DNA of 15,674 nucleotides from Synechococcus sp. (GTDB lineage: Bacteria > Cyanobacteriota > Cyanobacteriia > Thermostichales > PCC-7336), in NCBI GenBank assembly GCA_051439425.1, contig JBFRWD010000150.1, positions 1 to 15,674 on the forward strand. Direction: 5' to 3'. Shown piece by piece: positions 1 through 15,674 of this stretch. Under the pieces are notes generated by a model. It made no database searches and was not told the origin of the DNA. It saw only the letters and a program-made list of their open reading frames with translations. Both the position numbers and the translations under genes were made by a program. Numbering within the stretch: the first letter of the stretch is position 1; each line of letters starts with the position of its first letter.

Positions 1-300
1 TCCCTGAGCCTAGTTCCGAGGTTGGTCAAGCTCCTTGCCAGGTCGGGCAAAAAGGCATCGGGTCGACTCTCGGCCAGCTGGCGATAAATCTCAACGGCTT
101 GTTCCGCCGCGCGTAACGCCTCTTCCCGTCGCCCCAAATCCCTGAGCATAATTCCGAGGTTGGTCAAGCTCCTTGCCAGGTCGGGCAAAAAGGCATCGGG
201 TCGGCTATCGGCCAGCTGGCGATAAATCTCAACGGCTTGTTCCGCCGCGCGTAACGCCTCTTCCCGTCGCCCCAAATCGCTCAGCCTAACCCCAAGATTG
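1..300 (-). repeat. Intragenic tandem repeat, 138-bp unit (46-aa TPR-like unit); two full copies plus a diverged partial one, continuing off the window
   Basis: 1-138 and 139-276 differ at only 4 positions (10/148, 13/151, 66/204, 69/207); 277-300 is a more diverged partial copy. Confidence 0.95.
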
Positions 301-2087
301 CTAAGCAATCGAGCTTTTTCAGAACGTTCAATAACTGTACGTTTTAAAGCTTGTTCAGTTACAGCAACTGTTAATTCACGTAAAGCAACGGTTTCTCTTG
401 GCAAATTAGATTCGAGTTCGGCTGCAAGCTCAAGATTGCCAGAGTCATCGATACAACTTGCTAGGACCCGACCAATTGGGTCACCCCCTTCAATTGCTAC
501 TTCAATTCCAGCTTTTGCTGCTCGTTCGAAGTCAGCTTGTAGCACATTGCCGAGCCATTCTTTAGCCTCAGATTTCCGAGCTGCCAAACGATTCAAAACG
601 GTCAGGCCATTTTGTAATTCTTCAGAAAAACTTGGTTGTACCCAAGCTGTTCGAAATGCCTCATTCTCCTGAAAAATATTTGATAGAAGTTGCTCCCCCA
701 ACAAATCTGGCTGCAAAGGTTCGACTCGTTTGCCTACCTCGTACAGATCGATAAATACTTGCCCTAAAGCTTCTCGGCTTAGGGGAGTTTCTGGGGCCAG
801 CTTTGGCACCCTTTTTACCACTTCACCCACCCGATCGCGATCGCATCCTCCCGCCAACACGATTGCCGCCGCCGCTTCCGGCAACACCCGCTTGAGATGT
901 TGGGGAAAATCGTCTGAATTGTCTGCAGTACGTTCCCAGTACTTCCGTTCTCTGGAGATGGCAAACTCCAATAGCCGATCGCGCTCTTCAATTTCCACAC
1001 CAGACGCCGCTGCTAACGCTGCCAAATGGATAAATAGCACACGTTCAAATTCATCCGAAGATAAATCCGGTGGTTCAATCACTGGGTGCAACTCGGACAT
1101 TTCTTTGCGAAACGACCGCTCTGCCTGTCGATAAATCTCGTCGCGAGCCTCTATCTCCATCGCCAAAGGAGGCAACCGCTCGGGTAATGTTGATGCCCCC
1201 AACAGCTCCTCATATTCAAAGTTGTCTTCAATCAGGTTCTTCCACCAATCCCCCTCCGACCTTGCCAACAGCAAAAGCCGCACCTTACGGTTTCCCTGCT
1301 CCGACAGCACCGCATCCAACAGCGCCTTCACCTGCTCCCGGCGAGTCTCCGCATAGTCCACCACTAGCAGCACGTCCCGCCGCAAGCGCAACAGCTCTCC
1401 TGCTATTCCCGGATCGGCCTGCAACAATTTGCCAAATTTACGATCTACAAACCCCGTTTCCCAGCTCTTTTCTCCAAGCTGAAGTTGAATGCAAGCCTCA
1501 ATTGCCAGCCGCGTCTTGCCCGACCCGCCAGCACCTACTAGCAACCGAGCTGCAAAATCGCGATCGCTATTGCACCAATCTATAAAATCTTTCAGCCATT
1601 GGGTGCGCCCATAAAACGGCACCACCCCATACTCCGCTCGCAGTAACTTACTTGGCTGTTCGCTTCCTGCAGGCAGTTCCCGCACCGGATTCTTAAAAAT
1701 CTGACGAATCTTCTTCGGATTGGGCCGCATTAGTGGCTTTTCTGCCTGAATGCGGCTCAGCTCTGGGGGCAACGGTGTATCGTCTAGGCGATCTATCAGT
1801 AGAGCGCCATCCCCCTTCTTCAACGCCTCCGTATACTCGCGCCTCACCCAACCCGACTGAGCCGAATCCCGCGACCACAACAGCCAAACCAGCTCGGCTT
1901 CAGCAATTTTTGTCAGCAACACATCCGACCAAGCCGCCCCTGCGTCGATGCGATCCAAATCGAGAAAAACTATCTTACCCGCAGCCCGCAGCACCCGAGT
2001 CCGCTCGCGAGCCCAAACTTCGTCTTCACGCGCATAGCTAATGAAGACCGTTTCAGCATTCAGACTGGTGCTTGACCCCTCAGTCAT
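1..2087 (-). CDS. TIR domain + STAND-like P-loop NTPase + TPR repeat protein (NLR-like); 3' end lies beyond the left edge of the window
   Basis: Hand translation from ATG at 2087 (in-frame TGA upstream at 2109-2111, alternative GTG at 2108) stays open to position 1. TIR-like N-terminus VFISYAREDEVWA...VFLD...GAAWSDVL...LLWSRDSAQSGWVRREY (Glu84 at 1836-1838). Pre-P-loop VVPFYGR, Walker A GAGGSGKT (1512-1535), Walker B LLVVDYAE (1347-1370), sensor-1-like RLLLLAR, later PLQPDLLGE. C-terminal TPR units LARSLTNLGIMLRDLGRREEALRAAEQAVEIYRQLA. Confidence 0.93.
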   Translation of the reverse strand, partial: MTEGSSTSLNAETVFISYAREDEVWARERTRVLRAAGKIVFLDLDRIDAGAAWSDVLLTKIAEAELVWLLWSRDSAQSGWVRREYTEALKKGDGALLIDRLDDTPLPPELSRIQAEKPLMRPNPKKIRQIFKNPVRELPAGSEQPSKLLRAEYGVVPFYGRTQWLKDFIDWCNSDRDFAARLLVGAGGSGKTRLAIEACIQLQLGEKSWETGFVDRKFGKLLQADPGIAGELLRLRRDVLLVVDYAETRREQVKALLDAVLSEQGNRKVRLLLLARSEGDWWKNLIEDNFEYEELLGASTLPERLPPLAMEIEARDEIYRQAERSFRKEMSELHPVIEPPDLSSDEFERVLFIHLAALAAASGVEIEERDRLLEFAISRERKYWERTADNSDDFPQHLKRVLPEAAAAIVLAGGCDRDRVGEVVKRVPKLAPETPLSREALGQVFIDLYEVGKRVEPLQPDLLGEQLLSNIFQENEAFRTAWVQPSFSEELQNGLTVLNRLAARKSEAKEWLGNVLQADFERAAKAGIEVAIEGGDPIGRVLASCIDDSGNLELAAELESNLPRETVALRELTVAVTEQALKRTVIERSEKARLLSNLGVRLSDLGRREEALRAAEQAVEIYRQLADSRPDAFLPDLARSLTNLGIMLRDLGRREEALRAAEQAVEIYRQLAESRPDAFLPDLARSLTNLGTRLR

Positions 2088-2173
2088 TCCACACGCGCGA
2101 TCGGGCACTCAAACTCTATCAGGACCATTCCAAATCGCACTGACACTCAACGCAATCTTTTCAAATTGCACCA

Positions 2174-3745
2174 CTACTCCCACTCCGCAAAAATCCGTTC
2201 GATCTTGGCGATCGCCCAATCCGCAGCTTGCCGCGACGTTAACGGTCTCCCATTTCTGTAAGGCAACCGAGCAATCATCCCATCCGTCCAACGATTTTCT
2301 CGCAACTGTTCCGCAGGTAACGTACTCAAAATCGCCTGCTCCCACACCCGCTCGTACAACACACGCCCATACGCAGGATGCAACGACTGATACGCCGGTT
2401 GCGTCTCTCCCCCCAACATCTCCACCGCCACCGCCACATGCGGGTCTACATCACTGCGCCAATGGGCATGGGCCAACAACGACTCCCGCACCGGCAACAA
2501 CCGCCCCCTGCCCTCCTCCAGCAACCGAGCCAGATTATTGGGTTGAATGAGAAAGCTGAGCAGATCCTTCGCCGCTGCCACCCGCTCTTCATTCGCGCTA
2601 TCAAACACCACCGCTTGCTTAATCGTCACAATCGGCACAATCTCCTGCCCGTTCACCCCACGTGGCCAACTCACCGTCCGCATTTGCTCGAAATACAGTT
2701 GTCGCGACAGTTGGTTGTATTGGTTCTCCGGCTGCCACTGCGTGAGAGGAATCGACAAACTACTGTTGGCCGTCATAAACGACTGGCCCTGCAAAAAACT
2801 GTTGTTATTGCCCGTATCGTTCCACGTCACCGCTCTGGGGGGGACTTGCCCACCCAGATAGAGAGAGCGATAGCGATCGATCGCCCCAATTACCCCAGCC
2901 CGCATCACCTCTCCATCCAACCGCAAGGCCCCATCCGGCCCCACCGGTTTCACACCATACCCCTCCAGCACGTACTCAAACGCCCAAAAGGTATCGTTAC
3001 CAATCCGCGACATTGGCAATCCAGCGCCATACATTGTGGAGGCTTGGCCCTCGGGATTTTGAGTTTGAGAAATCGCCTCCTGTGCCTGTCCCAAAAACCG
3101 CCAAAACTCCCGCCACTCTCCCGGCACCTCTGCTCCCTCCAGCGCCGTTCCCTCCAATGCCCCCATCCACAGATGCAGCATCACCACCTGCTGCCCAATT
3201 GGTACCGCGTAATAATGACTGCCGACGCGAACGCGATTCAAATACGACACCGCATCCTGCGCCGTATCGCTCAGATCGCCCTCCAGCGGCTGCACTACCT
3301 CCGTCACATCAGCCAAAGCCCCCTGCCACGCCAGTTCGGGAATCACACTGGCTTCTAACTGGTGTCCGAATAAGATATCCGGCGGAAATCCAGCGGCCAA
3401 CGCCCGTTCGACATTGGCTATCTCCCCAGCATTCGCCACCAGCGTCAGCTCCGTTTCCCAGCCCGACTGTCGCTGCCATTCCTCTACCAGTTGCACGATG
3501 GCAATATTTTCTTGAGGTAAAAAACTTTGGGGCCACCAGATATGCAGGAGATCGCGATCGGTGCGTGCCTGCTGATTCATCTGGTGCAACTGCGCATCCG
3601 GAATGCAGGCGGTGAGACCAACCGACAGCAGCAGTCCGACCCCGAGTTGGAATGTATGAAAAATGGGGAGTCTCAAAAGACTAGATTCAGCGATTGAAGG
3701 AACAGCTGAATGGAGAAGATGCACTAGCGATCGCGACAGCAGCAT
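2174..3745 (-). CDS. ABC-type extracellular solute-binding lipoprotein (family 1, sugar-binding-like)
   Basis: Long ORF with hydrophobic stretch and lipobox GVGLLLSVGLTA-C; family-like motifs PPDILF, LADVTEV, YYAVPIG, WNDTGNNNSFLQG, AKDLLSFL. Start is uncertain: ATG 3745 chosen, ORF track begins at 3772, and a later start is possible. Confidence 0.85.
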   Translation of the reverse strand: MLLSRSLVHLLHSAVPSIAESSLLRLPIFHTFQLGVGLLLSVGLTACIPDAQLHQMNQQARTDRDLLHIWWPQSFLPQENIAIVQLVEEWQRQSGWETELTLVANAGEIANVERALAAGFPPDILFGHQLEASVIPELAWQGALADVTEVVQPLEGDLSDTAQDAVSYLNRVRVGSHYYAVPIGQQVVMLHLWMGALEGTALEGAEVPGEWREFWRFLGQAQEAISQTQNPEGQASTMYGAGLPMSRIGNDTFWAFEYVLEGYGVKPVGPDGALRLDGEVMRAGVIGAIDRYRSLYLGGQVPPRAVTWNDTGNNNSFLQGQSFMTANSSLSIPLTQWQPENQYNQLSRQLYFEQMRTVSWPRGVNGQEIVPIVTIKQAVVFDSANEERVAAAKDLLSFLIQPNNLARLLEEGRGRLLPVRESLLAHAHWRSDVDPHVAVAVEMLGGETQPAYQSLHPAYGRVLYERVWEQAILSTLPAEQLRENRWTDGMIARLPYRNGRPLTSRQAADWAIAKIERIFAEWE

Positions 3746-3931
3746 GATCGAGACTCTGGGGCACGAGCACAAAAATCATACTGACAACTAGTGAGAGAAG
3801 CCCGAGCGCATTTCTGCTCAGAAATGTAAGAACATCACGTTGAACAGTTCAGCCAAATACAGAGGAGTAAAACGACCAAAACCGCAGGAAATTTCCTCTC
3901 AGCTCTCTCGATGTCTGCCAGGTACATACGC

Positions 3932-4597
3932 CTAACCTTCAAGCGGTTGCTGGTTGGTCAACATGCCGACTAAACCATCCACCAAACGCTCCCGCTCCAT
4001 CGGCATCACGTCTTTACCAAACAGCATTTCTTGAAAAATGACGTAGTGAATCAATGTGCCAATAAAGATGCGGGACGAAACTTCCGGGTCAGGCAGATTT
4101 AGATCGGGGTGCTCGGTTAAGTATCGACCGATCAGCTTGAGTGCATTTGAGGGCGTTTCCGTCACAAATGCTTTGGCCAATTGTGGAAAGCGCTCCGACT
4201 CGGCCATCACCAATCGCATAAACGCGATCGCCATCGGATCGCTGGCGATTGCATCCAGCATGCCAAGAGCGATTCGCTTGAGCACCTCCTGCGGGGTTCC
4301 CTCCAAACGGTGAGATTCAAGCGGCCCGAAGATCGCGTTGAATTTCTGCTCCCTCATGTGCTGAATCATGCCAATAAACAGCCCCTCTTTGTCTTTGAAA
4401 TGGCTGTAGACCGTGGCTTTTGAGACACCGGCAGTAGCAGCAACGCGATCCATACTGGTGGCCGCATATCCCCGCGCCAAAAATTCCTGCATCGCCCCCT
4501 GCAAAATTGCCCTCGCTTTCTCGGGGGATAGCTGTCGGGTGGGGGCAACGTTTTGTCCCATGACGGGTGCCTCTAACTCAAAATCTCTTGCGGACAT
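3932..4597 (-). CDS. TetR/AcrR family transcriptional regulator
   Basis: N-terminal TetR HTH ILQGAMQEFLARGYAATSMDRVAATAGVSKATVYSHFKDKEGLF; C-terminal RLVMAESERFPQLA. Start ATG 4597 (or 4561); the ORF-track extension to 4711 looks non-coding. Divergent from devBCA. Confidence 0.93.
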   Translation of the reverse strand: MSARDFELEAPVMGQNVAPTRQLSPEKARAILQGAMQEFLARGYAATSMDRVAATAGVSKATVYSHFKDKEGLFIGMIQHMREQKFNAIFGPLESHRLEGTPQEVLKRIALGMLDAIASDPMAIAFMRLVMAESERFPQLAKAFVTETPSNALKLIGRYLTEHPDLNLPDPEVSSRIFIGTLIHYVIFQEMLFGKDVMPMERERLVDGLVGMLTNQQPLEG

Positions 4598-4742
4598 AAC
4601 TCTGTGCTCGTAAAAAGCCACACACCCAACTCGTACTGCCTCTCCACCGAAAGCAGGGAACCCACCTACACCACAAGCATCTCCGATAGTACCAAGTCCG
4701 TTACCACCCAATTTGCAAACGCGAAGAATGCGGCACCACCTA

Positions 4743-4771
4743 TTGACTTACTAAACTAGTCGGTTTAGCTT
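4743..4771 (+). promoter_or_regulatory. Predicted sigma70-type promoter of devBCA
   Basis: TTGACT (4743-4748), 17-nt spacer, TAGCTT (4766-4771, TAnnnT), 47 nt upstream of the devB ATG. Confidence 0.65.
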
Positions 4772-4802
4772 GATCGTAGCAGAACTAAACTGTTCAGTTC
4801 AT
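4751..4802. promoter_or_regulatory. Two putative TetR operator sites (CTAAAC-N6-GTTTAG)
   Basis: Perfect inverted repeat CTAAAC-tagtcg-GTTTAG at 4751-4768 overlapping the promoter spacer and -10; second imperfect copy CTAAAC-tgttca-GTTCAT at 4785-4802. Both lie between divergent tetR and devB. Confidence 0.7.
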
Positions 4803-4818
4803 TCTGAGGTGGCAGAGC

Positions 4819-6006
4819 ATGGTGGCCCATACAGGTGTTGAGCGCTCTTTTCCTTGGCCCGGTCGTCGGTGGATTGCGCTGCTGGTTGCTGCTGGCGTAG
4901 TGGTGGGTGGTGCAGTAGTCGTTGGTTCACGCGTTCGTAGGCCGGTGGTCAATTCGGAGCCGGTAGCATTACCGGAAATTACCACTGTGACAGCGTTGGG
5001 GTGGTTGGAGCCGCAGGGAGAGATGGTGGAGCTGTCGGCCCCCAGCTCCACAAACGGCAACCGCATCGCTGAATTGTTGGTGCGAGAGGGCGATCGCGTT
5101 GAAGCCGGTCAAAGCATTGCCATCCTGGATAACTACGCACAACGGGAGGCGGCTTTAGTTGAGGCCCAGGCTCAGGTAGAGATTGCCGAAGCCAATTTGG
5201 CGGTGGTTCGAGCAGGGGCCAAGACCGGGGAGATTGAAGCTCAGCGGGCGGCTGTGGCCCGATACGAGGCGGAGCTGCTGAACAATACAGCGGCTCAACA
5301 GGCGACCGTGGCTAGGCTGGAGGCGGAACTGCAGACGGCGGAAGCGGATGAGAATCGCTACCGGCAACTGTACGAGGAAGGGGCAATTTCGTCTTCAGAA
5401 TGGGATAGTCGGCGGCTGGCGACAGAGGAAGCGCGGCGGCAGGTGGAGGAAGGACAGGCCAATTTGGCCCGCATCCAGTCGGGGCAGCAGCAGCAGTTAA
5501 ACGAGGCGATCGCCACTCTAGATCGCATTGCTGAAGTTCGACCAGTTGACGTCAATGTTGCAGCGGCGGAGGTGCGGGCAGCGCGAGCAGCTGTTGTGCG
5601 GGCTCAGGCAGAACTAGATTTGGCGGCGGTCAAAGCTCCGCAAGCCGGTCAAATCATCAACATTTACGCTCGCCCTGGTGAAGTAATTTCTGATGGCATC
5701 GCCGACATAGGGCGCACCAGCCAAATGATGGCGGTGGCCGAAGTATACGAAAGCGATATTCGCAAAATCCAGTTGGGACAGGCAGTTCAGGTGACTAGTT
5801 CTGCATTGCCGGGGGTGGAGCTGGCTGGCGAGGTGGAACAGATTGACCTGGAGGTGCGACGCCAGAGCGTCATTAACGAAGATCCATCCGCCAACATCGA
5901 CGCCAAAACGGTTGAAGTGCGAGTGCTGCTCGATGAAACATCCAGTCAGCAGGTTTCCGGGCTCAGCAATCTCAGGGTCATCGTCACGGTCGATACCCAG
6001 ACCTGA
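4819..6006 (+). CDS. devB: DevB-family ABC exporter membrane fusion protein (HlyD-like)
   Basis: N-terminal TM segment, VTALGWLEPQGE, LLVREGDRVEAGQ lipoyl-like motif, long coiled coil, VAEVYESDI, DPSANIDAKTVEVRV; first gene of a devBCA-type operon. Confidence 0.92.
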   Translation: MVAHTGVERSFPWPGRRWIALLVAAGVVVGGAVVVGSRVRRPVVNSEPVALPEITTVTALGWLEPQGEMVELSAPSSTNGNRIAELLVREGDRVEAGQSIAILDNYAQREAALVEAQAQVEIAEANLAVVRAGAKTGEIEAQRAAVARYEAELLNNTAAQQATVARLEAELQTAEADENRYRQLYEEGAISSSEWDSRRLATEEARRQVEEGQANLARIQSGQQQQLNEAIATLDRIAEVRPVDVNVAAAEVRAARAAVVRAQAELDLAAVKAPQAGQIINIYARPGEVISDGIADIGRTSQMMAVAEVYESDIRKIQLGQAVQVTSSALPGVELAGEVEQIDLEVRRQSVINEDPSANIDAKTVEVRVLLDETSSQQVSGLSNLRVIVTVDTQT

Positions 6007-6146
6007 TATAGCAATCAGCTCGAAACACTCTGTAGCGGATTGCCGATCGCCACATATCACGAGCTCGGTAGTGAATCGGACATTCTCGTTAGTTCATCTC
6101 TTGCAAAGAGGCCCATCCTGTTTCGGCCATCAATCGGATTCCTCTC

Positions 6147-7319
6147 ATGAACCTACTCACCGCAATCAAACGCCGCACCCCACTGGGATGGCTGCAACTC
6201 AAACGCGATCGCACCCGATTGCTGACAGCGATCGCTGGAATCGCTTTTGCCGACATTCTCATCTTCATGCAGCTGGGCTTTATGGATGCGCTGTTCAAAA
6301 GCAACACGCAGTATCCCCGCAAGCTGTTAGCCGACATCGTTCTGATCGGTACCGAAGCGGACAACCTAAACAATCTGCGCACGTTTCCTCGCCGCCGACT
6401 GTACCAATCACTCGACGTTCCTGGAGTTGAAACGGCAGAAACCCTCTACATTGGTTCCGTGGATTGGCGCAACCCGATTACGCGGGACAAATCCTCCATG
6501 ACGATCTTCGGGCTCAATCCCGAACAGCCGGTATTTGATTTGCCAGAGATGAACCGACAGTTGGATCGGGTAAAGCTGCCAGATACCGTGCTGTTCGATC
6601 GCGCTTCGCGCGGAGACTACGAAGAGCTGATTGCCGAATTGGATCGGGGACAAAGGGTTGATACCGAAATTGGACGACGAACGATTTCGATTGACGGACT
6701 GTTTGAAGTAGGAGCTTCGTTTGCTGACGATGGCGCGCTAATTGCGAGCGACACCACGTTTATGCACCTATTCCCTCGTCGCGATGTCGCAACGGTGAGC
6801 TTGGGGTTGCTGGAGTTAGAGCCAGGGGCTGATGTGGAACAGGTGAGAACGGCGCTGGAGGCTCATCTCCCCGAAGACGTTCAGGTGTTTACCAATCAGG
6901 GGTATGTCGACTACGAACTCAACTATCTGAAAACAAACAGCGCCATTAGCTTTGTGTTCACCTTAGGGAGTGCGATGGGGTTCATTGTTGGTGTGGTGAT
7001 CGTGTATCAGGTGCTGTCCACAGACGTTAACGACCACTTAGCGGAATACGCCACCTTCAAGGCAATGGGGTATCGCTCGCAGTACCTGCTGGGTATTGTC
7101 TTTGAGGAAGCCGTAATTCTGTCGCTGTTTGGCTTTATTCCCGGAGTATCGATAGCGCTCGGACTCTATAGCCTGACTGCATCGGCAACGGCCCTCCCCC
7201 TGGTTATGCCTTGGGGGCGAGCAGCAACAGTGTTGACTCTCACCATTGTCATGTGTGGCCTGTCGGGGGCGATCGCTACCCGCAAACTGCAATCTGCCGA
7301 TCCAGCCGATATTTTCTAG
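6147..7319 (+). CDS. devC: DevC-family ABC transporter permease (FtsX-like)
   Basis: RTPLGWLQL...AIAGIAFADILIFMQLGF, IVGVVIVYQVLSTDVNDHLAEYATFKAMGY and C-terminal KLQSADPADIF are DevC-typical. Confidence 0.95.
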   Translation: MNLLTAIKRRTPLGWLQLKRDRTRLLTAIAGIAFADILIFMQLGFMDALFKSNTQYPRKLLADIVLIGTEADNLNNLRTFPRRRLYQSLDVPGVETAETLYIGSVDWRNPITRDKSSMTIFGLNPEQPVFDLPEMNRQLDRVKLPDTVLFDRASRGDYEELIAELDRGQRVDTEIGRRTISIDGLFEVGASFADDGALIASDTTFMHLFPRRDVATVSLGLLELEPGADVEQVRTALEAHLPEDVQVFTNQGYVDYELNYLKTNSAISFVFTLGSAMGFIVGVVIVYQVLSTDVNDHLAEYATFKAMGYRSQYLLGIVFEEAVILSLFGFIPGVSIALGLYSLTASATALPLVMPWGRAATVLTLTIVMCGLSGAIATRKLQSADPADIF

Positions 7320-7346
7320 AGTTGCTATTTCTTCGGGACAATTCTC

Positions 7347-8060
7347 ATGCAACGTGTAAACCAACAATCGCCCGCGATCGACATTCAGCATCTCGATCAT
7401 TCCTTTGGTCAGGGACAATTGCGCAAGCAGGTGCTGTACGACATCAACCTGAAAATCTACCCGGGTGAAATTGTCATTCTGATGGGTCACTCTGGGTCGG
7501 GAAAAACCACACTCCTGACGCTAGTGGGTGGTTTGCGTTCGGGACAATCCGGTAGCCTCAAGATCCTGGGGCAAGAACTCTGCGGTGCATCTCCGGAACA
7601 GCTAGTGTTGGCCCGCCGCCACAACGGATATATTTTCCAAGCACACAACCTACATCGCAGCTTGACTGCACTGGAGAATGTCGGCATGGGGCTGGAAGTG
7701 CACGGCCATCTATCCAAACACGAACGGATGGAGCGGGCTGCTGCCATGCTCGAACATGTGGGGCTTGGAGATCGCATTGACTACTACCCCGATAATTTGT
7801 CTGGGGGTCAGAAGCAACGGGTGGCGATCGCGCGTGCTTTGGTCAGCCATCCGGCGATTGTGCTGGCGGATGAACCGACCGCAGCTCTAGATAGTCAGTC
7901 GGGACGGGATGTGGTCAATCTCATGCAAACACTGGCGCAAGAGCAGGGCTGCACAATCCTGTTGGTGACTCACGACAACCGTATTTTAGATGTGGCCGAT
8001 CGCATCATCACGATGGAAGATGGGGCTTTGGTAGACCCCCTTGCTGCAACTGCTGCGTAA
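7347..8060 (+). CDS. devA: DevA-family ABC transporter ATP-binding protein
   Basis: Walker A GHSGSGKT, Q-loop IFQAHNL, signature LSGGQKQR, Walker B VLADEPTAALD, H-loop VTHDNRI. Confidence 0.96.
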   Translation: MQRVNQQSPAIDIQHLDHSFGQGQLRKQVLYDINLKIYPGEIVILMGHSGSGKTTLLTLVGGLRSGQSGSLKILGQELCGASPEQLVLARRHNGYIFQAHNLHRSLTALENVGMGLEVHGHLSKHERMERAAAMLEHVGLGDRIDYYPDNLSGGQKQRVAIARALVSHPAIVLADEPTAALDSQSGRDVVNLMQTLAQEQGCTILLVTHDNRILDVADRIITMEDGALVDPLAATAA

Positions 8061-9434: not shown

Positions 9435-9752
9435 CTAGCCACCCATTCCCATTTCATTGGCCTCTGCGAATCGCTCCATGAAGCGTAGGAAGCGTTCCCA
9501 ATCGGCGGGATCGGGCATTTCGTAAATAGCTTCGATTGCCTTAAATTTGCCGTCAGCGAACTTAACCCGGACGTCGCGTGTGACCAACTCCCCCTCTTCG
9601 TCGAACATCTTCATGCCAGGAACTTCGAACATATCGGTCTCAGGGTCCTCGAATATGAACACGGCCGAACCGCGGCTACCGTCTTTGCTCCGCATTACGC
9701 GAACGTTGGAGGGAATCTCGGAGACGCCAGGAGTTAGCTCGATCTTGGCCAT
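9435..9752 (-). CDS. psb28: Photosystem II assembly factor Psb28
   Basis: [12 protein letters not shown]...[21 protein letters not shown]...[27 protein letters not shown]...[15 protein letters not shown] follows the Psb28 family pattern; 105 aa from ATG 9752. Confidence 0.92.
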
Positions 9753-10113
9753 ATATATGCATTTTTTTAAGAAGAGTTGTTTTATCATACGACATTCGAC
9801 TCAGAACCAATCACTGCAGTTCTTTACCCCCTGGGATCGTCGGGAAGAGCTGGGTACGAAAATGAGTATCTGTAGCGTAGGAGTGATGGATGCTCGCTCT
9901 CTTTCTCAGGCTTGCTGCCAATGCATTCGTCGTTTAATGACCCCCTCCATAACCAACCTGGCCGACTATCAGGCAGATGGTTGCACACAATATAAACACT
10001 TCCAGGCAAGATCCCCGAGCAAGCTTTTGTTGCGAATACCTTTGGTAATTAAGAGCAATTCCTGTGTCTTCTGCGAGCGTTGCCTTCTTTCCGTTTCACC
10101 CCACACAGAATTC

Positions 10114-10461
10114 ATGTCCGAGCAGCAAGCCATTACTCCCGTCACTCCAGTTGAACTGAATACCATTGCACCTTCCCCCAATATGCTGGGGGCGATCGCC
10201 CAGCTGATCCAGAACCTGCAGCCCCCTTCTCCTGCTGCCGACCCGATCGCTCATATCCGTGCTCTAGAAGATGCCTATCAGAACCACTGGATTTTGGGGA
10301 CCAGCGAGCTGGCTCAATTGCTCAAAATTACGCCTAAGACTTTAGTGCGTCACGAAACGATGGAACGCTATGGATTTGTGTGCGAGCGATCGGGACAGAA
10401 TGGTACGGAATTAGGTTGGCGAGTTCGCAAGCCTAAAACGAAAGGAAAAAAGAAGTCGTAA
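10114..10461 (+). CDS. Small hypothetical protein, possible HTH DNA-binding domain (115 aa)
   Basis: 3' part of ORF 9547..10461 from ATG 10114; WILGTSELAQLLKITPKTL is HTH-like, followed by GFVCERSG...GWRV and a Lys-rich tail. The upstream part of the track ORF is antisense to psb28. Confidence 0.75.
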   Translation: MSEQQAITPVTPVELNTIAPSPNMLGAIAQLIQNLQPPSPAADPIAHIRALEDAYQNHWILGTSELAQLLKITPKTLVRHETMERYGFVCERSGQNGTELGWRVRKPKTKGKKKS

Positions 10462-10591
10462 AGAGCCAACTGAAATTCCCAGTTCAGTCAATCGTTCCCA
10501 TCAATTGTTTGGAATTTCTTACCCCTGCAAAGTTGTGGAGACAACATTTGGCCTGAATTCACTCAGTTAGTCTACGTCGATCGGTGAACTC

Positions 10592-10605
10592 GTATAAATT
10601 GTTAC
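10592..10605. promoter_or_regulatory. Possible NtcA-type site (GTA-N8-TAC)
   Basis: GTA-TAAATTGT-TAC followed by A, in an AT-rich intergenic region. No TAN3T box was found at the canonical ~22-nt distance. Confidence 0.25.
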
Positions 10606-11226
10606 ACCAATCAGATATTATCAATCGCCAAATTCAAATGCCGATCGACTAGCACCTGCGTCAATCTGTTTTGGCGATGTTGTGACTCCAGTGGCTGGGT
10701 CAATGTCATGGCAATCCGCTGTAAGGCCTGGAGTGCGAAGACTGCTGAACGCTTTGATTTACAAGAAATATGATTCGAAAACCCTTCATAGAGGCTGGCC
10801 AAATGCTAAAGGCCAGACTGCTTTCTCGACTGAAGAACTTCAGGTGAAGTCGGCCAACCTTATATGTTTCTTTTTACAGAGTTTTACGATCGCGAAGACA
10901 TATTGAATACATATAAGTTGAATGAACGGAACGGCAAACGTTAGATGTCATTCTCAAATACATGAATATATGTATCGAAACTATCAAGAAGTTACTGCAA
11001 AACGTTTGCAGGATTTTGACCCAAATGGAGCGTGCGATGAGCTAGAAACATCGTGTATCCATTGAGATTGTCAAGAGCAGTGGTGGTTGATAGCATCCCA
11101 CTAGTAAAGTTTCCTAGATTGAGATTCAGCCTCTGCATTAGTTTCCTATGACCCATTGGGTAATGGCGATAAAAGTGCGGTCAGTGTGTAGAGCGTTGAT
11201 GTTGTGTTGGAGTGCAAAATTGTCAC

Positions 11227-11787
11227 ATGCTAAAGTCCGATCGATCGATTGTTATGCAACCCGCGCTGACTACCGCGTTGGCGCTAGAAACGATTTCAAT
11301 TGAGCTCGATGCACGGCATGTTCAACTGCTTCCAATTGATGTTGAGCGAGATCGAGATTTCTTATTTCAAGTGTATTCATCCACTCGCGAAGCGGAATTG
11401 AGTGTAGTGGGGTGGCCGGAGGAGCAAAAATCTGAATTCTTGCACCTGCAATTTGACGCGCAGCGAGGGTACTATCAAACGCGGTATCCGCAGGCTGAAT
11501 ACTTATGTGTTTACGTGGATCGTCGCCCGATAGGTCGTCTATATCTCGATCGCCAAGCCGGCGCATTTCGCATCTTAGACATTACCCTACTCAAACAGTT
11601 TCGAAGGCAAGGGATTGGAACAGCTATTTTGACGTCTATTTTGAAGTTGGCCAATCGAGAAAAGAAGATAGTGACGGTTCTTGTTGAACGCTACAATCCA
11701 GCGCTTCGTTTATACCGGCGATTGGGATTTCGTCAGTGTCGCGAGGCAGGGGTGTCCTATGTGATGGAATGGTCTGCAATGAATTAG
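11227..11787 (+). CDS. GNAT family N-acetyltransferase
   Basis: Acetyl-CoA motif A FRRQGIGTAIL and motif B NPALRLYRRLGF; N-terminal FLHLQFDAQRGYYQTRYP and IGRLYLDR...ILDITLL. Start could be GTG 11212, ATG 11227 or ATG 11254. Confidence 0.9.
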   Translation: MLKSDRSIVMQPALTTALALETISIELDARHVQLLPIDVERDRDFLFQVYSSTREAELSVVGWPEEQKSEFLHLQFDAQRGYYQTRYPQAEYLCVYVDRRPIGRLYLDRQAGAFRILDITLLKQFRRQGIGTAILTSILKLANREKKIVTVLVERYNPALRLYRRLGFRQCREAGVSYVMEWSAMN

Positions 11788-11943: not shown

Positions 11944-14046
11944 CTAAACCCACCCCTTAACTTCCCCGTCTGTTAACGATTGTTCCAGTTTTACATACTC
12001 ACTTTTTGCCGATTGTAATAGGTGTTTCATCTGGATGGGTTCTTTGTTGTCTGCCGCAAAAAATGCGGCATTTAAGGCAATATTGCGAATATTCCCCCCC
12101 GCGACATGCAGTTTGGCCAGCTTTTTGCAGTCCAATCCCTCTGTGGGAGTTTGAGCCGGAAACATCCGTTGCCAAATGGCCTCCCGCTGGGCAGCATCGG
12201 GAAACGGAAATTGCACCACAAATCGAATTCGACGTAAAAAGGCTCGGTCGATCGCGCTCTTGATATTTGTCGTCAAAATGGCCAATCCGCGATATGCTTC
12301 CATCCGCTGCAATAGATAGCTGACTTCGATATTGGCATGGCGATCGTGGCTATCTTTCACCTCCGTACGTTTGCCAAACAACGAATCCGCCTCGTCAAAG
12401 AGCAAGATGACCCCGCCCCCCTCGGCTGCGTCGAATACCCGCCGTAAATTCTTCTCCGTTTCGCCAATGTACTTGCTGACCACGGAACTCAAATCGATGC
12501 GATACACATCCAATTGCAAGTGATGCCCTAGCACTTCTGCCGCCAAGGTCTTTCCCGTTCCACTTCCTCCGGCGAACAGGGCCGAAATTCCCAATCCTCT
12601 GCCGCTTTTGCTGCCAAACCCCCATCGTTCGTACACCTGCGATCGGTGCTGGATGTGGGTGGCAATATCTTTCAATATCCCGCGCTCCTTGTCCGGTAGC
12701 ACTAAATCCTCCCAACCTGCCGATGAATCAATCCGTTGGGCTAGCTCGTCCAATCGCGGTCGCGCCTGTTCTCGACACACCGTCCATAACTGCTGCGATA
12801 ACTGTGCCGCAGATTCGCCACGAGACTCATCGTGATTCGATTCGTCGTTCCCGGATGATGTCTGATGATTCGGTCGTGTTTGGTTGCCAGATAATTCCCG
12901 ATCGCTCGATACTGCCTTGCTATTGCTATGCCAACCATCGATTTTGAGCGATGCGGACTGAATCGCTGTTGCACTCATATTGAAATGGGACACCAACGCA
13001 TCGATATGTCCGTTCAACTGATTGGCTCGTTCTCCCAATGCCCCCTGCCATGCTTGCCGTTGCTCGGCAGTGCTTGGAGCGGTGACATCAAACGTGACGC
13101 AGGTTCGCATTCGTTGAGGCCGCCGAACTTGGCTGGCGATTATGCATGGGGTCGATAGAGCATCTAAAAATTGAGCGATTGCTCGATTGCGATCGTCCTC
13201 GCGCACGTCCACCCAATCGCAATCCAGCAGCACCACCCGCTTGCTCAAATGCCACTCTCGCTCGCACAAACAGCGCACCAACTGCAACTGAGTGCTATCC
13301 GTCGGTAAGGCTTCCGAGGACAGGACAAAGGGAACAAGTTCTAATGTTTGGCACGTATGAATGCCGATCGCCCGTTTGCCCTCCACATCGCTACCGCATA
13401 ATTGCAGATTGGGCAGGTCGCGATCGCGTTTCGACGCCTGCAGCCATGTATTCGCCATCTGGATGACGAGGTGTTGGTGAGAGGGCACCAGTGTAGTTTT
13501 GGACGATAGGGGGAGTTCGAGCTGTTGCAGGCGGGAGTCCAGCGAGTGCATCTCCATCAGTGCATTCAAGACTCGCTCGTCAATCCGCAATACGCTACTC
13601 GCCAGCGAATTTCCTGCTCCGATGTCGAGTAGATGCCAGCGTCGCAATGCCGCAGTAGGCGACAACGCTCCCCAATAGGCGTTCGGAAAGACGGCCAGTG
13701 CCAGTTGAGCGGTGGGATACGTTTTATGGGGGTGCCCCTGTGCCTCGGCCAACAGTTGCTCCCAATCCCCCTCCAATTCCATCCCCGCACACAGGAGCAA
13801 CACATCTCGTTCGAAAGGGGACAGGCTGAATGTCTGGCACAGTTTTTCTAGCGAGCTGAGGGGGGAGAGTTCGGAAGGTTCGAGAGGGGGAAGAGCAATG
13901 GGCTGAGGGGGATCGTCGACGTTACGCAAGATGTGAGCGTTGAGAGCGGTGCGGATGCGGGCGATCGCCTGTACCAGATACTCCTGGTTTGCCTCAAGCC
14001 AGACTGACAATTGTGTTGGTGGGGCGGATGGAGTGGAGATAGGCAT
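11944..14046 (-). CDS. AAA+ ATPase, Afp15/Pvc15-like (eCIS-associated)
   Basis: N-terminal FSLSPFERDVLLLCAGMEL...ALSPTAALRRWHLL...LRIDERV; C-terminal WEDLVLP, GLGISALFA, Walker A GGSGTGKT (12547-12570), IDLSSVVSKYIGETEKNL, Walker B LLFDEAD, DRHANIEVSYLLQRME, DRAFLRR, GGNIRNIALNAAF. Directly downstream of a DUF4255 gene. Confidence 0.9.
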   Translation of the reverse strand: MPISTPSAPPTQLSVWLEANQEYLVQAIARIRTALNAHILRNVDDPPQPIALPPLEPSELSPLSSLEKLCQTFSLSPFERDVLLLCAGMELEGDWEQLLAEAQGHPHKTYPTAQLALAVFPNAYWGALSPTAALRRWHLLDIGAGNSLASSVLRIDERVLNALMEMHSLDSRLQQLELPLSSKTTLVPSHQHLVIQMANTWLQASKRDRDLPNLQLCGSDVEGKRAIGIHTCQTLELVPFVLSSEALPTDSTQLQLVRCLCEREWHLSKRVVLLDCDWVDVREDDRNRAIAQFLDALSTPCIIASQVRRPQRMRTCVTFDVTAPSTAEQRQAWQGALGERANQLNGHIDALVSHFNMSATAIQSASLKIDGWHSNSKAVSSDRELSGNQTRPNHQTSSGNDESNHDESRGESAAQLSQQLWTVCREQARPRLDELAQRIDSSAGWEDLVLPDKERGILKDIATHIQHRSQVYERWGFGSKSGRGLGISALFAGGSGTGKTLAAEVLGHHLQLDVYRIDLSSVVSKYIGETEKNLRRVFDAAEGGGVILLFDEADSLFGKRTEVKDSHDRHANIEVSYLLQRMEAYRGLAILTTNIKSAIDRAFLRRIRFVVQFPFPDAAQREAIWQRMFPAQTPTEGLDCKKLAKLHVAGGNIRNIALNAAFFAADNKEPIQMKHLLQSAKSEYVKLEQSLTDGEVKGWV

Positions 14047-14132
14047 GGGCTTGCGTTACTGCCGGTTAGAAGTCCTGTCATGTGTCAGCGGAACCACAAT
14101 GGGGCAATCGCTCGCCACCAGGCTTGCTGCAT

Positions 14133-15419
14133 TTAATCCAGAGTGATTTTGGGAGCGGAATACCAGCGGAAGGTGGGGCTGTTTGGCTCGGTGTCAATGC
14201 TGAGGGGGGACGACGCTCCATCCACCTGGAGGCGGACTAGGTACGAGCCCGCCCGCACGTTACGCAATGAAAAGGCGACGGTGTGGGACGGTGTGGGGCG
14301 AGTATGGGCTTCAAATTGATAGGCGACAGGATGTTGGACCGACCACTCGTTGAGAGCCAACACAACCGTTTGTTCGGGGGACAATGACAGGTCGATGTGG
14401 AGGACTAGTTCTGCATCTCGTTCATCGTCCCCAACATCGTCTAAATCGCGCAATTGCAGGTCAGTGATTTGGGGACAAAGAACGAATGGCATGACATTTG
14501 ACTGCACCAGTTGGCGATCGATGACAGTGGTTCCGACGCTACCCGTAGGCGAGGAGGGGCGGTGAATGACATTGAGAGTTTGCACTCCAGCTCGCAACCG
14601 ATTGCGATCGAGGGTTGATAGGGCAACGGTGAGCTGGCCCGGTTGAATGTCGGTGGGTCCTGCCTCTAGGTCCCCAATCCGCACCACAGTCTCCGGCCCC
14701 TGCAGTTGCTTGCCCACAATTGACAGCGTGCTGGTGGCCACGATGGGGGAAAAGCGGCCTGTTTGGGCCACCACTTCGTCCACCTCCGGTTGACCGCGAT
14801 AGGGCAAGGCCGAATAACTCGGAAGTTCGCGCACGGGGAGTGCCCGCTTGAGCAACTCTTCCCCCTCCACGATCGCCACTGAGGCTTTGTAGGCCACCGA
14901 CAGGGCATATGGAGTTTGGAAGAACACCGACCAGACTTTCGACAAGTCGTCTAGCGACATATCCAGCGGAGAAATGGCGATGTCTTCCACTTGATGGGCT
15001 AGATCCGAGTCTGCTAAATACGAAAATGTACTATCGCTAATGGCATCTTGAATGGCTTCGGTGTCGAGAGTGCTGAGATCGGAGAGGGTGCGGATGGTGC
15101 TGCCCAGCAAACGCTGCGGTTCGTGTTCACCATCGTTGCCGTAAAAGCTGAGCATGTAGTGCAAATCCAGGCCAGTCCGCGATCGCTTGGCCATGGTGCC
15201 CTTGCGCTGGCGACCGTGCAATTCGGCAGTGGTATGCCAGACATGGTTGGGGGTGACTTGAAAGAGGTAGAGATTGACGCCAATTTCCAATACCCCACTT
15301 TCTACCGCATTGGGGCGAGACACTGTGACGCGGGCTCCATCCACATCCCGTTGGACTGCGGCCTGAATTTTTTTCTGCAGTACTGCCGTAACTGTGGCGA
15401 TCGCCAAGTGGTTACTCAT
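14133..15419 (-). CDS. DUF4255 / Pvc16(Afp16)-like protein with C-terminal Ig-like extension (428 aa)
   Basis: MSNHLAIATVTAVL, VNLYLFQVTPN, LDLHYMLSFYG, QRLLG, MSLDDLSKVWSVF, YALSVAYKASV are DUF4255-like; beta-rich C-half (LSIVGKQL, SNVMPFVL, GSYLVRLQVDGASS). ATG 15419 is preceded by a GAGGA RBS. Confidence 0.85.
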   Translation of the reverse strand: MSNHLAIATVTAVLQKKIQAAVQRDVDGARVTVSRPNAVESGVLEIGVNLYLFQVTPNHVWHTTAELHGRQRKGTMAKRSRTGLDLHYMLSFYGNDGEHEPQRLLGSTIRTLSDLSTLDTEAIQDAISDSTFSYLADSDLAHQVEDIAISPLDMSLDDLSKVWSVFFQTPYALSVAYKASVAIVEGEELLKRALPVRELPSYSALPYRGQPEVDEVVAQTGRFSPIVATSTLSIVGKQLQGPETVVRIGDLEAGPTDIQPGQLTVALSTLDRNRLRAGVQTLNVIHRPSSPTGSVGTTVIDRQLVQSNVMPFVLCPQITDLQLRDLDDVGDDERDAELVLHIDLSLSPEQTVVLALNEWSVQHPVAYQFEAHTRPTPSHTVAFSLRNVRAGSYLVRLQVDGASSPLSIDTEPNSPTFRWYSAPKITLD

Positions 15420-15674
15420 ATCCGTCCTCAACCTGAGTTCGATAGCCCACACCAGCCCCTCTTCCACTCTCTGCCAGTGTGACGGAGTCTTATCGGCCTG
15501 TGCAGTCAACAAAAGTCGAGCATGGAGTGGGATGAAGGCAGACAGATGAGATGACGTTAGCCCGACCTAAGTTCGCTAAACCTCATCCCCAGCCCATCAC
15601 CCACATTTGGAGTAGGGAGCAAGATACAATAAAAAAAAATAGTTTAGTTGATCTATTATCCATTGATTATAAAT

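Follow-up and report, generated by a model that had tools for sequence, protein, structure and literature searches.

The window, a 15,674-nt stretch of DNA from Synechococcus sp. (contig JBFRWD010000150.1 of assembly GCA_051439425.1), carries at its left end the 5' part of a minus-strand gene for a protein built from an N-terminal TIR domain, a STAND NTPase module and a C-terminal array of TPR units. We consider it probable, at roughly 0.6, that this protein acts as a stand-alone NLR-like sensor, one of the conflict or defense type known from bacteria. The anatomy of the protein and the conservation of its key residues are plain from the data presented below, and self-association of the TIR domain is predicted by complex modeling. 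By analogy with Avs proteins and plant TIR-NLRs, the protein would sense a ligand, depend on nucleotide, cleave NAD+ and protect against phage. Overall it is a plausible candidate immune sensor, sound but fairly ordinary.

The gene and its domains

The gene is real, and its match to named motifs and domains is far above chance. An uninterrupted minus-strand frame of at least 695 codons, reported by the initial annotation of this DNA, is borne out by our analysis. With open ends allowed, the open reading frame (ORF) spans 3..2108 and encodes 702 amino acids (aa) from a GTG codon, with no stop before the first base of the window, and it is stop-free over 695 codons when read from the ATG at 2087. 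Because the orthologs share an MTEGSS start, ATG 2087 is favored over the in-frame GTG at 2108. The 5' part of the gene thus occupies 3..2087 on the minus strand, with its 3' end off the contig, and an 86-nt spacer (2088..2173, minus strand) separates its ATG from the stop of an upstream same-strand gene for a solute-binding protein. Simple scans of 1900-4000 yielded no sigma-70-like promoter and no intrinsic terminator, a result of little weight for a cyanobacterium. Since the window is the entire contig C150 (G000:C150) of a 182-contig draft genome (G000; 4.80 Mb, 96% complete, 1.1% contaminated), the gene was cut by the assembly, inside its repeats, and because it runs off the contig end it was left out of ORF lists that drop open-ended frames. 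It had been described as hidden; it is merely open-ended at the contig end, and its 702-aa form is already present as a called protein (P0002) in a protein collection.

Three domains follow one another along the frame, all on the minus strand. The TIR domain, assigned by Pfam TIR_2, covers residues 14-114 (1746..2048). It is followed by the STAND NTPase module at residues 136-580 (348..1682), defined by invariant motifs and a helical plus winged-helix part, and by the first TPR units of the TPR_10/TPR_12 type (3..332), recognized from Pfam, a 46-aa repeat period and structural comparison with VIA. The motifs quoted in the initial annotation were all recovered in place: VFISYARED (residues 14-22, nt 2022-2048) and SGWVRREY (residues 78-85, with Glu84 at nt 1836-1838) in the TIR domain, and VVPFYGR (residues 155-161, conserved as VVPFxGR), the Walker A motif GAGGSGKT (residues 185-192, nt 1512-1535, with K191 at nt 1515-1517), the Walker B motif LLVVDYAE (residues 240-247, nt 1347-1370) and PLQPDLLGE (residues 457-465, nt 693-719) in the NTPase module, the last of these in its helical/winged-helix part. 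The module also contains LLLARS (nt 1257-1274), which includes R276.

An AlphaFold2 model built on an 80-sequence alignment reached a mean predicted local distance difference test score (pLDDT) of 93.3 and a predicted TM-score (pTM) of 0.87. Its top Foldseek matches were STAND proteins, namely the STAND-TPR protein 6mfv, SAMD9, EfAvs5, the TIR-NLR RPP1, Orc1/Cdc6, MalT and Avs3, with low TM-scores because the domains are differently arranged. Compared one domain at a time with VIA, the TIR matched the SPARTA TIR-APAZ protein (8qlo; residues 10-123, Z 15.2, root mean square deviation [rmsd] 2.7, 114 residues aligned) and the SARM1 TIR (6o0u; residues 11-123, Z 14.5, rmsd 2.7, 110 aligned). The NTPase matched Apaf-1 (3sfz; residues 131-549, Z 14.6, rmsd 6.2, 313 aligned), NLRC4 (4kxf; residues 134-545, Z 14.3, rmsd 4.7, 323 aligned) and the NB-ARC domain of NRC1 (8bv0; residues 153-474, Z 13.8, rmsd 5.5, 271 aligned), and residues 550-695 matched the TPRs of LGN and KLC (Z 16-17.7, with LGN at 17.7; rmsd 2.3-2.9, about 134 aligned). 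Pfam, the AlphaFold2 model and these domain matches together uphold the architecture of TIR, P-loop STAND NTPase and TPR that was first proposed.

The TIR call itself is secure: Pfam TIR_2 (PF13676) matched residues 14-114 with 58 bits against a cut-off of 28 (E 1.7e-15), in line with the SPARTA and SARM1 fold matches. The initial annotation had placed Glu84 where TIR NADases carry their catalytic Glu, and two results agree with it. In a phmmer alignment that is weak (E 0.066), Glu84 pairs with the Glu of the SARM1 motif DWVHKE, presumably the catalytic E642 of SARM1. Moreover, Glu84 is retained in 23 of 24 N termini of relatives, which were chosen by a loose motif; the only one lacking it, P0235, fails to align as a TIR. 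Retention across the same N termini was 23 of 24 each for F15, S17 and Y18, 22 for G50 and W80, and 21 for S78; without exception, these residues are invariant in the 20 TIR-bearing relatives of an alignment (A2). By the criterion of a catalytic-position Glu in helix C (W-x-x-x-E), the TIR domain appears to be NADase-competent, with putative activity.

Self-association of the TIR is predicted by modeling. A four-copy complex of residues 1-135 gave a median interface score (ipSAE) of 0.75, against 0.02 for the best of three controls. The three runs scored 0.75, 0.09 and 0.75, with a partner pLDDT of at least 65 and agreement between runs in at least 25% of contacts, and the most confident contacts were symmetric across helix A (residues 24-38). 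In calibration, 20 of 30 proteins known as pairs from solved structures cleared the ipSAE mark applied here, as did 1 of 23 known as single chains. That calibration was run with two copies and the TIR job with four; since TIR assemblies have been solved, resemblance to them may account for the pass.

The NTPase module has the features by which we recognized STAND P-loop NTPases, namely a Walker A motif GxxxxGK[ST], a Walker B motif hhhhD, a sensor Arg after strand 4, and helical and winged-helix domains: it carries K191, D244 and R276 and has a fold resembling those of Apaf-1 and NLRC4. The Walker A motif, initially described as intact, and the Walker B motif are both invariant in the 80-sequence alignment, in which the invariant residues comprise G188, G190, K191, R193, D244, R270, R276, W281, P460 and E465. 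The window protein has all of them and thus a complete set of STAND NTPase catalytic residues.

At the C-terminal end of the 695-residue frame, Pfam matched TPR_10 (E 2e-15) as well as TPR_12. The TPRs of the initial annotation are thus present, and it is the present analysis that sets their period at 46 aa. Three further contig ends carry these repeats. The last 163 codons of contig C41 and the first 192 of contig C148 encode such TPR units, then a conserved tail (..LLPFFE..RNY..ADRQPD..), and close with a stop. In a genome of the same genus (G003), the genes upstream of the ortholog are collinear with the window and those downstream with C41:3802-11573, and compared with the orthologs P0249 and P0003 the C41 tail is 61-73% identical and the C148 tail 43-47%. 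From this synteny and tail identity, the missing C terminus of the window gene is most likely on C41, and the C148 end most likely belongs to a paralog on contig C145. The unique part of the gene (558-2068) is covered without differences by a clean contig in run X1; over the repeats the summed depth was 42-119 against about 15, which gives no copy number. Intact orthologs are P0003 (766 aa, 85% identical) and P0249 (1,008 aa). In the G003 ortholog (locus L014 9553-9560, G003:C24), an in-frame TAG within the TPR array, where P0249 reads Gln, splits the gene into ORFs of 776 and 225 aa; this codon may be a genuine nonsense mutation or an error in the sequence.

A large NTPase family with varied heads

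In an exhaustive HMMER search, residues 136-580 matched 5,791 representative clusters with E <= 0.001; tightening the limit to 1e-10 left 3,339 of them, and 1e-30 left 705. Among ESM Atlas clusters, the nearest were all bacterial and either unnamed or labeled nSTAND_NTPase5 or nSTAND3, and public orthologs already carry the name 'TIR domain-containing protein'. We surveyed the domains of 50 representatives, taken as every third of the best 150, with Pfam at E <= 1e-6. PF25199 (nSTAND_NTPase5) was the only NTPase model matched, in 19 members (nine of which reached its cut-off of 34 bits). NB-ARC (PF00931) and NACHT (PF05729) had no match in these 50 homologs at E <= 1e-6, nor in the window protein at E <= 0.1. 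Sequences of solved structures gave nothing relevant for the module (a single match, E 1.2), and the matches in NCBIfam were confined to TIR and TPR models, far below threshold, with none for the NTPase. The initial annotation could not assign this NTPase to a named Avs type, which agrees with our searches; its further suggestion that the subtype may be uncharacterized is not supported. Judged by sequence, the NTPase appears to be of the nSTAND_NTPase5-type clade and no new subtype, in a family that is large and already catalogued. Kaur et al. (2021) named nSTAND1 and nSTAND2 and described head-swapping in STAND conflict systems of multicellular bacteria (PMC8195603), and Lee et al. (Nature 2026) distinguished 589 STAND clades, 198 of which they called defense-associated, and also used 'nSTAND' labels (PMC13581612). 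Six homolog accessions did not occur in seven supplementary files of the latter paper, its large clade tables not being among those files.

The N terminus varies within the family. Among the 50 sampled members, Pfam matched TIR_2 in six, CHAT in five, PNP_UDP_1 in three, Trypsin_2 in two, and Metallophos, HTH_3 and TCAD9 in one each, while TPR_10 or TPR_12 units were found in 29. Death-type enzyme heads were counted in 17 of the 50, and DUF4062 heads occur in the family members P0031 and P0109. The heads of this NTPase family, TIR, CHAT, PNP and trypsin among them, are swappable, and swapping of death-type heads is the pattern by which STAND clades have been called defense-associated (PMC13581612).

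Relatives are encoded by 220 pattern-selected stretches of one-per-species genomes. The best 80 of these came from Cyanobacteria, Acidobacteriota, Myxococcota, Actinomycetota, Desulfuromonadota, Planctomycetota and others. Of these, five matched the window protein from within its first 14 residues and two more from inside the TIR. Closer to home, the NTPase is present in 3 of 41 related genomes, its own included, and among other genomes in one of three of the genus and two of six of the family, a patchy spread typical of accessory genes. It was also found in 51 of 72,556 plasmid records, 42 of these from Streptomyces.

The surroundings of the relatives were scanned as well. From the best 80, 24 loci were picked, and PADLOC was run on 13 of them, covering 122 of the 237 flank ORFs; the scan had no control set, and no enrichment is claimed. 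Effector-type neighbors occurred at three of the 13 loci, all belonging to relatives without a TIR. At L026 (2220-6865) a TPR-CHAT protein of about 1,080 aa is followed by a Peptidase_C25-like protein, at L035 (2064-6810) a TPR-CHAT protein is followed by a 485-aa protein with no Pfam match, and at L032 (2294-7386) a 1,191-aa protein with two TIR_2 stretches is followed by an AAA_22 ATPase. These arrangements may be multi-gene versions of the system.

Proposed mode of action and alternative readings

In Avs proteins, viral components are sensed by the C-terminal repeats, the STAND domain oligomerizes and the N-terminal effector acts; DUF4062 is an NADase head of Avs2, and heads that degrade NAD+ are proven effectors of Avs proteins (10.64898/2026.09.04.749371). 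On this model, the resting window protein would be a closed, autoinhibited monomer. Its TPR array would bind a ligand, most likely a foreign (phage) protein, and binding would open the NTPase module, leading to nucleotide exchange or binding and to oligomerization. The TIR domains would thereby be gathered into composite active sites, which would cleave NAD+, so that the infected cell stops growing or dies (abortive infection).

Several observations weigh against reading the gene as an immune sensor of this kind. The window protein matches PF25199 below its cut-off (27.3 bits against 34; E 3.7e-6, residues 174-283), and HTH heads in some family members, found in the 50-member survey and in P0077 and P0117, indicate that the chassis is not exclusively immune. 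No Avs or NLR model of PADLOC-DB 2.0.0, which we take to include AVAST, bNACHT and TIR-NLR models, matched the NTPase or sensor part; of the eight matches at E <= 0.1, seven covered the TIR only (residues 9-91) and one the TPRs (E 0.046). The NTPase family was found in 0 of 50,697 phage records. No defense gene lies on either side of the window gene or its paralog, which extends what had been noted for the visible side, and there is no defense-island context. At the 13 relatives' loci no complete known defense system was seen, and 11 of the 122 flank ORFs matched PADLOC at E <= 1e-8, mostly with generic models (ABC ATPase, TPR). One of the three TIR complex runs scored only 0.09. The gene is incomplete, it is linked to C41 by synteny only, its end is not spanned by any contig of runs X1, X2 or X4, and the in-frame TAG of the G003 ortholog implies that the gene can decay. 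In the literature searched, we found no experiment on the PF25199-type TIR-STAND-TPR clade.

Some of these points would suit a STAND switch that is not antiviral and regulates programmed cell death, self/non-self recognition or the stress response of a cyanobacterium whose life habits are complex, with the TIR as an NADase or an interaction module and an endogenous ligand. Both gene copies lie among housekeeping and metabolic genes, the HTH heads recall STAND transcription regulators, and relatives are mostly from Actinomycetota, Myxococcota, Cyanobacteria and Acidobacteriota, which fits the bias toward 'multicellular bacteria' (PMC8195603). We nevertheless regard such a switch as unlikely, given the strong conservation of the catalytic Glu and the NTPase motifs and the swapped death-type heads, a defense-associated STAND pattern (PMC13581612); none of our results points to an endogenous ligand. 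The TIR could also make an NAD-derived signal for a separate effector encoded elsewhere, as in Thoeris-type systems, instead of killing by NAD+ depletion. The weak TIR matches in PADLOC and NCBIfam were to ThsB and the Thoeris type III protein ThcB4 (E 1e-3 and 3e-7, far below the cut-offs), and synthesis of signaling molecules is a reviewed role of bacterial and plant TIRs (10.64898/2026.09.04.749371). This division of labor seems distinctly improbable, however, as neither paralog has a candidate receptor or effector gene beside it and the TIR takes the place that in other family members belongs to direct-acting enzymes (CHAT, trypsin, PNP).

The copy in G000 might, finally, be decaying or broken, its open frame a functionless remnant: its 3' end is unassembled, the G003 ortholog has a stop within its TPR array, and just one of the three other genomes of the genus has the gene. 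We think this very unlikely, because 695 codons are open, every invariant family residue is present, the C41 tail is in frame with a proper stop and 61-73% identical to the tails of intact orthologs, and the unique part recurs without differences in the clean contig of run X1. A stand-alone TIR-STAND-TPR sensor of the conflict or defense type is thus the reading we prefer.

Neighboring genes, the paralog and known systems

Directly upstream of the TIR gene lies the gene for the solute-binding protein (2174-3772, minus strand). At the syntenic G003 site this gene is absent, and a 31-residue remnant with a stop stands there; elsewhere, G001 has only a 102-aa piece and G002 a 43%-identical homolog. 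Further neighbors in the window include genes for a TetR protein, an HlyD/FtsX/ABC exporter, a pentapeptide-repeat protein, an S4-domain protein, a GNAT acetyltransferase and Psb28 (9435-9788), the last of which marks the genome as cyanobacterial. The tetR gene is divergent from the HlyD/FtsX/ABC-ATPase exporter genes, which we take to be DevBCA-like, and this block (3932-8060) is 88-91% identical at the nucleotide level in G003. The region 9547-11500 has a GC content of 0.44-0.46, against 0.51-0.59 elsewhere in the window, and a 304-aa ORF at 9547-10461 on the plus strand has no Pfam match. At 11944-15512, on the minus strand, two genes lie next to each other that belong to an extracellular contractile injection system; they encode a 459-aa Pvc16_N protein (E 1.4e-37) and a 700-aa AAA ATPase with a winged-helix domain, presumably Pvc15-like; the cluster runs off the right contig end.

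On C41, the tail is followed downstream by genes for PNPOx, a glyoxalase, an alpha/beta hydrolase, Crp, a YHS protein, an oxidoreductase, a TetR protein and gamma-glutamyltranspeptidase. A stretch of some 6 kb (C41:11573-17717, locus L018) that separates the synteny block from the TPR tail is present in G000 and not in G003; it holds the genes for the TetR protein, the oxidoreductase, the YHS protein, Crp, the alpha/beta hydrolase, the glyoxalase and PNPOx. The paralog, too, is flanked by metabolic or regulatory genes. A third TIR protein of this genome, 650 aa long (C63:392-2344, plus strand, locus L021), has a TIR_2 domain (E 2.2e-24) with a Glu in ..CKREY.. and no P-loop; the rest comprises a long low-complexity linker, a possible membrane-spanning hydrophobic segment and a C-terminal FGE-sulfatase domain (E 1.4e-55).

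Compared with the window protein, the C145 paralog has 42.5% amino acid identity in the TIR and 43.5-51.4% in the NTPase module. Identity in the TPR part is 66% at the amino acid and 75.5% at the nucleotide level, against 42-51% and 51-58%, respectively, in the other domains. Eight full TPR units were assembled, and units on different contigs have a mean nucleotide identity of 83%. Within this genome, variability is highest at unit positions 42, 43 and 35; in relatives, 35 and 43 but not 42 are again found among the most variable positions. Ortholog lengths of 766-1,008 aa were taken to reflect differing unit numbers, although the units are not reliably countable. A mode of evolution proposed for fungal NLRs whose internal repeats are highly conserved may apply here: the two paralogs could conceivably form a small diversifying receptor set, with TPR units homogenized by recombination or gene conversion within and between genes and specificity set by a few variable positions and the number of units; we hold this idea to be speculative and on balance rather doubtful, and scaffold constraint alone would explain the higher TPR identity equally well. 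If true, it would describe a bacterial route to receptor diversification in a STAND clade with a TIR NADase output.

STAND and NLR-like sensors with NAD+-cleaving heads connect bacterial, plant and animal immunity. Little work has been done on examples from cyanobacteria, since the systems tested come mostly from Enterobacteriaceae (PMC13581612). The window protein and its intact orthologs P0003 and P0249 are compact, well-modeled (pLDDT 93) representatives of a very large NTPase clade and could help to find out what regular TPR arrays sense. They introduce no new principle, as the architecture, the modular swapping of heads and the likely mechanism are already established in related families.

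Among these is the PF25199 family itself, with variable heads and TPR_10/12 tails, which has the same invariant NTPase motifs as the window protein; no other Pfam NTPase model comes near to matching the latter, which differs in its sub-threshold score (27.3 against 34 bits) and in a TIR head that 6 of the 50 sampled members have. Plant TNPs (TIR-NB-ARC-TPR), characterized by an NB-ARC with TTR, GLPL and MHD motifs and a TIR of the TNP type, resemble it in domain order, the only level at which they were compared. Johanndrees et al. (2022) described TIR-NB-TPR proteins in bacteria and left the origin of plant TNPs unclear (PMC9806590). We considered a TNP link for the window protein, but it has no NB-ARC profile match and its nearest Atlas clusters are all bacterial. 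E. coli TIR-II is likewise a single protein with TIR and TPR, a likeness judged from architecture and not from sequence comparison; in a 2024 survey it protected against phage, and about 30% of its members have an ATPase domain (PMC11350192). Plasmid matches of the window NTPase family, by comparison, were almost all actinobacterial, with no Escherichia tallied.

Similar layouts are found in well-studied sensors. The SIR2- and NIR-headed Avs proteins (Avs2, Avs5) have the same order of N-terminal effector, STAND NTPase and C-terminal helical-repeat sensor, and EfAvs5 and Avs3 were among the Foldseek matches of the window protein. Triggers have been reported for Avs7, Avs8 and Avs10-21, whose sensors are at least 400 aa long (PMC13581612). 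The large sensors studied for Avs7-24 have at least this length, unlike that of the window protein, whose near-identical TPR units of 46 aa make up a short array. The SPARTA TIR-APAZ and SARM1 TIRs are the closest solved folds (24-26% identity); they are driven by Argonaute and guide or by ARM/SAM domains, whereas the TIR of the window protein would be driven by a STAND NTPase. The plant TIR-NLR RPP1 shares the domain order of TIR, NTPase and repeats and the catalytic Glu in the TIR, and it matched the window protein in Foldseek over TIR and NTPase together, with 13% identity in the structural alignment.

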